Source: a virus (taxonomy: Duplodnaviria; Heunggongvirae; Uroviricota; Caudoviricetes). Taken from it: a stretch of DNA of 6,272 bases. The notes under the pieces are model-generated. The model ran no database searches. It was not told where the DNA came from and saw nothing but the letters and a program-made list of their open reading frames with translations. The position numbers and the translations under genes are program-made. The stretch lies in the IMG/VR virus record IMGVR_UViG_2531839195_000008; one strand, 5' to 3'. This document shows positions 221 through 770 of the stretch, piece by piece (positions within the stretch are counted from its first letter, which is position 1; every line of letters starts with the position of its first letter).

Positions 221-703
221 TTAATCATCATTAATATCTTTCATATTCAATTTGCAATTTTCGTAGGTCACTCCCGACTCGCCATTAACATTAACTCCAG
301 CTCTGATATTCCCGTTTTCTTTTACATCTACAAAAAACTGGCCTCTTGGCATCTTGAACGCAAATGTAAAACCAACAGTATCTGAATCAAAATCATCATC
401 TTTATATATTGGGATCAAAAATGTCATCGTCGCTGGTGATGCATTGTTTGCAAAATCAAATACACCTATACTTTTGCCGAATTCATAAGAAGCTTTTCTC
501 AATATAATCGCACCGCTGGCAGAAGGGGATGGGCACGATATCCTCAGTTGTCTGAATCCATCTGTATCCAAGTCAACGTCATTATCTGCAGATGTTTTAA
601 CGTTACTAATAAATCGTGAAACAATCTCCTCATTTGTTAGTATTTTCGCCTGAGCACAGCAAGAGGTTAATATTGCAACCGTCATTAAAAATGGCTTTAT
701 CAC
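221..703 (-). CDS. Putative lipoprotein or secreted protein of unknown function (160 aa)
   Basis: ORF with GTG start at 703 preceded by GGAG at 8-nt spacing. N-terminus MIKPFLMTVAILTSCC has a basic n-region, a hydrophobic core and an LTSC lipobox-like motif; an AQA signal-peptidase I site is an alternative. The remainder is Asp/Asn-rich and I do not recognise the family. It has its own terminator. Confidence 0.6.
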   Translation of the reverse strand: MIKPFLMTVAILTSCCAQAKILTNEEIVSRFISNVKTSADNDVDLDTDGFRQLRISCPSPSASGAIILRKASYEFGKSIGVFDFANNASPATMTFLIPIYKDDDFDSDTVGFTFAFKMPRGQFFVDVKENGNIRAGVNVNGESGVTYENCKLNMKDINDD

Positions 704-770
704 AAAACAAACTCCATTGTTAGCATGTTACGCGATAATTTTGCCTCATCTTTCACCACAAAAAAAGAAC

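Follow-up and report, generated by a model that had tools for sequence, protein, structure and literature searches.

What is a gene for a small, apparently exported protein doing directly behind a phage tape measure gene, where baseplate genes would be expected, and why does an IS1 end follow it? We addressed this question in a stretch of DNA of 6,272 nt (the window), all genes of which are encoded on the minus strand (Table 1). An earlier note had offered two answers: either the gene is a phage moron or cargo gene, or it is DNA of host or foreign origin, brought next to the tail module by an IS1-associated deletion. The explanation that best fits the locus overall, to which we assign a probability of roughly 0.55, is that of a moron-type cassette, encoding an exported barrel with a putative entry-blocking role, in a tail module from which the baseplate genes were deleted in association with IS elements.

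Table 1. Features of the window, in order of position.
Feature	Position	Strand	Basis or remark
IS1 end	1..143		terminal inverted repeat GGTAATGACTCCAACTTACTGAT reads on minus strand from base 143
N-like DNA-circularization gene, 5' remnant (31 nt)	144..174	-	ATG at 174-172; alignment A1 to AST215
Shine-Dalgarno region GTGGAGACAGT of truncated N-like gene	175..185	-	identical in AST215
Intrinsic terminator, GC-rich hairpin AAGCCGCCAGAAATTGGCGGTTT and T-run	193..215	-	
Cargo gene, 160-aa protein, predicted to be exported	221..703	-	GTG start
Predicted signal peptide codons up to Cys15, MIKPFLMTVAILTS then C	659..703	-	pattern rules on whole family; alignment A2
Alternative putative signal peptidase I site A17-Q18-A19, K20 next	ends at base 647	-	
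Spacer (67 nt)	704..770	-	GGAG Shine-Dalgarno at 712-715
Tape measure gene (649 aa)	771..2720	-	stop codon 771-773
Tail assembly chaperone, tail tube, tail sheath and DUF2635 genes, Mu-like tail module	2805..5148	-	
Tail sheath gene	3494-4990	-	
DUF2635 gene	4987-5148	-	
Tail-terminator gene, 3' part, cut by IS600	5158..5498	-	Pfam match covers profile positions 83-147 only
IS600 (IS3 family), partial at window end	5499..6272	-	

The arrangement described in the earlier note was confirmed: a gene of 160 codons follows the tape measure gene after a 67-nt spacer that carries a Shine-Dalgarno sequence, and has its own terminator, a 10-pair hairpin with a T-run that can be described as strong. IS1 does lie downstream, as had been claimed, but it does not abut the terminator, since a stub of the N gene is located between the two. 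The product matched PHROG 5586 from end to end (E = 9.7e-89), residues 1-160 aligning with profile positions 1-161, and comparison of the window with the copy from Yersinia gave dN of 0.154, dS of 1.63 and omega of 0.09, demonstrating that the cargo protein is under purifying selection. The Yersinia copy was used for this purpose because the window and the AST215 copies differ by only five substitutions and their dN/dS was uninformative. Given that its homologs are under purifying selection, that the PHROG match is full-length and that the AlphaFold model is confident, we conclude that 221-703 is a real gene and not a chance ORF. Its composition deviates from that of the tail genes: GC is 36.9% and GC3 31%, compared with 49-54% in the tail genes and about 52% in the flanks. 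The mature part of the protein is rich in Asp and Asn, as noted earlier (15 Asp and 12 Asn in 146 residues, pI 4.6). Rfam matches at 126-271 were discarded, as all of them scored far under the gathering scores and were centred on the terminator hairpin.

When the window was compared with E. coli genomes, homology to intact prophages stopped at base 144 on the IS1 side and at base 5500 on the tail-terminator side, and in loci L017-L024 of Shigella the corresponding position has called IS1 transposase domains. The tape measure protein is equal in length to phiP27 L47 and 98.2% identical to it across residues 1-649, indicating that the gene is intact. The program-made ORF list extends the tube and chaperone ORFs (2805-3239 and 3139-3564) beyond the starts annotated in relatives, where the lengths are 118 aa for the tube and 111 aa for the chaperone; the long forms overlap adjacent genes and are probably not real. 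The IS600 copy in the window lacks 27 bp, in frame, near 5973 when compared with other Shigella IS600 copies, which would take 9 residues out of OrfB.

The fate of the baseplate genes can be read from the short segment next to IS1. Bases 144-174 (ATGGACTTACC...) are the ATG and the first ten codons of an N-like gene with its own Shine-Dalgarno sequence (alignment A1), and this N-like sequence breaks off directly into the IS1 inverted repeat GGTAATGACTCCAACTTACTGAT. In FDAARGOS_944 (L011), the closest relative, the cassette is 100% identical and is followed by a full N-baseplate-fibre set and then by an ipaH effector gene. Direct BLAST comparison showed that 8,157 bp of FDAARGOS_944 (L011 3844-12000) are replaced in the Shigella locus by IS1 and a partial IS600. 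In Shigella chromosomes encoding the exact window protein, IS1, a partial IS600, a DUF4376 fibre fragment and ipaH (LRR and NEL) come next, and the remnant continues with a SAM-methyltransferase gene, a fibre-assembly fragment, zinT and the chromosomal neighbours (L017-L024). We conclude that the window is a remnant of a Shigella-type ipaH prophage, and sequence comparison indicates that baseplate genes once followed in canonical order and were lost by an IS-associated deletion. Because this deletion runs from N codon 11 through the baseplate genes and most of the fibre genes, no baseplate genes follow the cargo gene here. The IS-associated removal of distal tail genes that the earlier note had envisaged is thus upheld. 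That note had also named an outcome that would speak against it, namely a tape measure with an intact C-terminus and baseplate genes relocated by rearrangement; the C-terminus is indeed intact, but the comparison with FDAARGOS_944 shows the baseplate genes to be deleted. On the head side of the remnant, further decay involving IS66, IS1 and IS600 was seen, which varied among Shigella genomes.

The other half of the earlier note's second alternative, that the gene itself is host or foreign DNA (for example a conserved host lipoprotein) joined at this IS1 junction, might be suspected from the IS1 edge, which is only 78 nt past the stop codon on the downstream side, and from a GC content foreign to the tail module. 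We regard it as refuted. The cargo gene is on the phage side of the junction, with 31 nt of the N gene between its terminator and IS1, and an identical order of tape measure, cargo gene and N, without an IS element, is found in 11 E. coli prophages and in vB_EcoM-720R4. Moreover, every context found among the loci examined was a phage tail module or a phage-plasmid-like contig, and a non-phage chromosomal context of the kind expected for a host lipoprotein was not among them.

The alternative of a phage moron or cargo gene was supported when intact related prophages were searched. In 11 of 5,426 E. coli genomes, or 11 of the 24 in which at least 80% of the tape measure 3' end was covered, the same gene separates the tape measure gene from N, and the baseplate and fibre genes come after; bases 144-5500 are contiguous in these 11 complete genomes at 95.6-99.9% identity. 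In AST215, the tape measure gene is followed by the same 160-aa gene (WP_032245164.1, annotated "hypothetical protein"), a Mu N-like gene (463-aa 'DNA circularization protein'), genes for baseplate assembly proteins, gp45/V, gp46, J/gp47, YmfQ, and the fibre and fibre-assembly genes; the prophage is otherwise complete and adjoins a tRNA-Ser gene. The gene is absent from very close relatives. The slot is empty in E100341, phiP27, SfIV, ST64B and YeP1, with spacers of 15-50 nt between tape measure and N, and in E100341, the tail genes of which are 97% identical, the tape measure stop codon is followed by 15 nt (CAATGGGGTATCAGA) and then by the N start codon. Occupancy of the slot adds about 590 bp to the tail module. 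The locus therefore has extra DNA between genes that are adjacent in related phages, a GC content that differs from that of the surrounding genes, and a transcription terminator of its own (193-215), which are features of morons by the Juhala/Hendrix definition as summarised in PMC3594210. We conclude that bases 175-780 are a moron-type optional accessory-gene cassette in a tail module of the phiP27/SfV/ST64B type, whose prophages combine an HK97-like head with a Mu-like contractile tail.

How the cassette came to occupy some modules and not others was examined at the borders. A search for flanking direct repeats that could be an insertion scar yielded only short matches at chance level around the cassette. 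The empty-site spacer CAATGGGGTATCAGA resembles both of the Shine-Dalgarno-bearing flanks of the occupied site, so that insertion and deletion look alike here. Near-identical tail modules with and without the gene exist in two sublineages (AST215 compared with phiP27, and 720R4 compared with SfIV). Judged from these sequences, an old resident of the slot that was repeatedly lost or exchanged by recombination in the flanks fits better than many independent insertions. We hold this account of the genomic identity and history of the cassette to be highly probable.

Six other lineages have homologs (42-75% identity) in this slot. These include vB_EcoM-720R4 and a prophage on a 205-kb plasmid (~50% identity at full length, 53% in the mature part), a Yersinia enterocolitica prophage (74% and 76%, respectively), and the metagenomic lineages P0011, P0012 and P0014 (42-44% in the mature part). 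In lineage P0017, two cargo genes come after the tape measure gene, the homolog and one that encodes a HIRAN-domain protein. A GC dip relative to the flanks was observed in all six lineages, and a hairpin and T-run of differing sequence was found in five of the six copies with a readable downstream spacer, counting the window, with equivalents of the terminator after the homologs in L003, L006, L008 and L025. The exception is L027 (5984-6471, lineage P0014), which has spacers of 16-17 nt on both sides and no terminator, and looks like a plain late-operon gene. The gene has diverged about as much as the tape measure C-terminus and N on either side of it. More distant homologs (P0019 and P0021, 23-28% identity) are located among plasmid-maintenance and repressor genes in two phage-plasmid-like contigs (L004 and L005), where they adjoin an IncFII-type repA, parA, mazEF and a cI/S24-like repressor gene.

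Some details of these contexts are recorded here. The L004 copy has a terminator and lacks the GC dip. In the P0017 contig (L028 2305-3423), the HIRAN-domain gene (GC 33%) comes first and the barrel homolog second, and a further signal-peptide-like ORF (MKKLAL...) starts downstream of the cargo genes; the slot in this arrangement looks like a hot spot for cargo.

A position so strictly kept in seven diverged lineages, together with a divergence that tracks the neighbouring genes, could be explained if the protein were part of the tail or baseplate or helped to assemble them. Against this, tail assembly takes place in the cytoplasm, whereas every member has an export signal of the cleavable kind; the isolated, functional phages phiP27, SfIV, ST64B and YeP1, with otherwise collinear tail modules, lack the gene; and two homologs are found outside any tail module. 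A structural role is therefore very improbable.

We next consider what the protein may be. PHROG 5586 carries no function annotation, and hence membership names the family without explaining it. The family consisted of 9 clusters in a word-seeded search and of 15 representatives, counted at 50% identity, in an exhaustive phmmer search of 1.84 billion proteins, a number that was also obtained with a profile. The earlier description of the protein as an orphan is an overstatement in view of these approximately 15 representatives. Pfam and NCBIfam scans gave no match, and neither did PADLOC. A sequence-profile search of the PDB with the cargo protein returned only noise (E >= 0.4), Foldseek of its model against the PDB and BFVD returned nothing at E <= 0.001, and in a literature search by protein accessions and PHROG number no paper mentioned either. 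The AlphaFold model (pLDDT 84.8) consists of a helix (24-41) and eight strands that form an eight-stranded beta-barrel, and the predicted fold is calycin/avidin/lipocalin-like. Cys150 is invariant and Cys57 nearly so in the family alignment (A2), which suggests that this conserved pair forms a disulfide in the periplasm.

Pattern rules identified an N-terminal signal peptide in every full-length member of the family, and export of the protein to the envelope is very probable on this basis. In the window protein, the signal peptide would comprise residues 1-14 or 1-19, leaving a mature protein of 141-146 residues. The earlier assignment of a lipobox stood in part. The sequence MIKPFLMTVAILTS followed by C15, with L-T-S-C as the box, satisfies a PROSITE-type lipoprotein rule ([LVI][ASTVI][GAS]C preceded by an n-region containing K/R and by an uncharged h-region, with the Cys at 15-35) at the minimum allowed position of the Cys. 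However, this Cys is confined to one branch of the family: L-[TI]-S-C-C was found only in the Shigella/E. coli cluster and the Yersinia copy, while A-x-A-type signal peptidase I sites without a Cys were found in P0003, P0011, P0012, P0014, P0017, P0019 and P0023, the non-lipobox members showing (A/S/V)-x-A and then K or G. At the position aligned with these sites of its relatives, the window protein has A17-Q18-A19/K20 as well. Lipidation is thus possible in the Shigella/E. coli/Yersinia branch and is not a property of the whole family, and for the window protein we put the chances at about even. If lipid-anchored through Cys15, the protein would sit in the outer membrane, since residue +2 is not Asp. 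The appropriate label, in our view, is an exported accessory protein of PHROG 5586, and not a part of the tail or a host lipoprotein. In the Yersinia enterocolitica copy (L006, about 7974-8010), the called ORF starts with MMLISCC and lacks an n-region; an upstream ATG with an A6 run is out of frame, and one extra A would yield MKKTYLLVFMMLISCC, a proper signal peptide. This frame break could be a frameshift, an assembly error or homopolymer slippage.

When and where such a protein would be made bears on its role. A scan for the sigma-70 consensus upstream of the cargo gene detected no promoter, a permissive scan gave a single 8/12 match (815-786), and comparison of the regions upstream of the homologs revealed no conserved promoter motif; the sole exception to these negative results is a promoter-like site, TTGACC-17-TATAGA, that precedes the two-gene cargo in L028. 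A weak promoter, or one that is not of the sigma-70 type, may still be present. Because no promoter was seen, expression in the lysogen, which is part of the classical definition of a moron, is unsupported. We envisage that the cassette is transcribed at least within the late operon under antitermination by Q, a gene for which is present elsewhere in these prophages. Q would allow late transcription to read through the terminator at 193-215, and the terminator would shield the downstream baseplate genes from transcription not modified by Q. The product would be an acidic, eight-stranded beta-barrel that is exported by Sec, contains a disulfide and has about 141-146 residues when mature, with a possible additional lipid anchor via Cys15 in the Shigella/E. 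coli/Yersinia branch. In the lysogen or infected cell it would work from the periplasm or the outer membrane, binding or blocking so as to hinder phage entry, through superinfection exclusion or by obstructing a receptor or injection.

The same observations could indicate that the protein serves only in the late lytic phase and is not expressed in the lysogen; it would be exported shortly before lysis, and might mask the receptor on debris and so spare progeny, a second role ascribed to T5 Llp, or modulate lysis. The lack of a detectable upstream promoter and the location inside the late tail operon in every tail-module copy, including the tightly packed L027 gene without a terminator, are consistent with this, as is the naming of Llp, an envelope protein that excludes phages, as a lytic conversion protein (PMC9586334). 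Yet a terminator kept in five lineages is difficult to account for in a gene that only antiterminated polymerase reads, and the distant homologs are located among plasmid-maintenance and repressor genes and not among late genes. We consider a purely late-phase function rather improbable.

We favour entry blocking, tentatively and at less than even odds, because small envelope proteins encoded in the structural clusters of temperate phages repeatedly block phage entry; the argument is one of analogy and of location. A role of the surface-exclusion type, which the earlier note gave as an example, is likewise a reasonable guess. No relationship in sequence or fold to any known exclusion protein was found (PADLOC, Pfam and NCBIfam all negative). 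A parallel in genome position is HK97 gp15, a moron-encoded envelope protein that excludes phages and whose gene lies next to the tape measure gene (Juhala et al. 2000; Cumby et al. 2012; reviewed in PMC3594210). As with HK97 gene 15, extra DNA of deviant GC with a terminator lies in the tail operon directly beside the tape measure gene and encodes a small protein that would reside in the cell envelope and be dispensable for virion formation. HK97 gp15, however, is YebO-like and located in the inner membrane, and its gene has a promoter of its own and has been shown to be expressed in the lysogen, whereas the protein described here is a predicted exported beta-barrel, encoded on the other side of the tape measure gene and with no promoter evident.

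The parallel with small phage lipoproteins is of a different kind. The mEpimmI Lpp proteins (Lpp021 and Lpp010) were found by their lipobox in a structural cluster, and exclusion by them was shown experimentally (PMC11893012). Like these proteins and Llp/Cor, the gene in the window carries a lipobox and lies within a structural gene cluster, and its product would be on the periplasmic side of the outer membrane with an intramolecular disulfide, which is predicted here. Unlike Llp, Cor and Lpp, which have about 60-80 mature residues and are encoded beside the gene for the receptor-binding protein (Llp acts on FhuA), the cargo protein has about 145 residues (141-146 mature), a different fold, and tape measure and N as neighbours; its lipobox is not conserved in the family, its only PHROG match is 5586, and the fibre genes are 7-8 kb away.

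A conceptual model for exclusion linked to the tape measure is provided by Ltp of the Streptococcus thermophilus phage TP-J34, which, in the account of Bebeacua 2013 given in PMC3952083, targets the tape measure protein. Ltp is likewise a prophage lipoprotein that, as described in that account, acts outside the cytoplasmic membrane, although its host is Gram-positive and it has no sequence relationship to the cargo protein. By analogy, the barrel might be the first representative of a class of exclusion proteins in the Gram-negative periplasm. When an incoming phage of the phiP27/SfV type ejects its tape measure or N protein, such proteins would intercept it on its way across the periplasm. 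This would account for the persistence of the gene at the junction of tape measure and N and for its divergence in step with them, and lipid anchoring would then be a recent refinement in the Shigella/E. coli/Yersinia branch. We regard this as an outside chance. Ltp is helical and is encoded in the lysogeny module.

A gene that benefits the bacterium, and not the phage in its competition with other phages, must be weighed against entry blocking. The barrel could act on the environment of the bacterium as a fitness or virulence conversion factor, for example in serum or complement resistance, adhesion, or the binding of ligands or host factors in the manner of Bor, SodC or lipocalin-like proteins. 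The exact window protein is intact in thousands of Shigella assemblies, in a decayed prophage that also carries the ipaH effector gene, the predicted fold belongs to a class rich in ligand binders, and morons with such roles are well documented (PMC3594210). On the other hand, the adjacent genes for sheath, tube and tape measure no longer serve any use and are just as intact, and for this reason retention is no evidence of selection. In addition, the gene is rare in E. coli, as the count above shows, it is tied to one slot of the tail module across hosts, with Yersinia and the metagenomic lineages included, and no similarity to a known virulence factor was found. A role in host fitness is therefore unlikely, though it ranks next after entry blocking.

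The eight-stranded antiparallel barrel predicted here also resembles MliC, PliC, PhiA and ACP at the generic level of the fold. The protein might accordingly be imagined as a periplasmic or outer-membrane-anchored inhibitor of a muralytic enzyme, similar to these proteins or functionally similar to T4 Spackle, that would keep lysozyme, or the tail-associated hydrolase that an incoming phage carries, from attacking peptidoglycan. In MliC/PliC, the motifs SxSGAxY and YxxxT/SKG are adjacent and form the hairpin that binds lysozyme. We dropped a specific assignment as an MliC/PliC lysozyme inhibitor, since none of 11 members matched Pfam at E up to 10 and only the signal peptide was aligned by hhalign with E. 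coli MliC. The shared SASGA of the cargo protein and MliC is at a non-equivalent place in the chain: MliC has ISASGARYTDGIYVFWSKG, whereas SASG is at residues 61-64 here, before strand 2, with no second motif adjacent. A muralytic-inhibitor role is quite improbable; it ranks below a purely late-phase function and above a structural one.

The cassette is an ordinary kind of feature, with nothing mechanistically surprising about it, and adds one more uncharacterised moron to those known; its main practical value at present is a correct annotation in a prophage remnant truncated by IS1 and IS600. The gene is nearly ubiquitous in Shigella, with very many Shigella flexneri and S. sonnei genomes carrying it. 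Should entry blocking prove true, the superinfection-exclusion proteins known from enterobacterial prophages would gain a new fold and possibly a new target, and the host range of phages used for therapy or typing could be affected. The barrel gene also occurs outside chromosomal prophages, in a 720R4-type tail module at 179-194 kb (L029) of NZ_CP126947.1, a 205-kb conjugative IncF plasmid from avian pathogenic E. coli.
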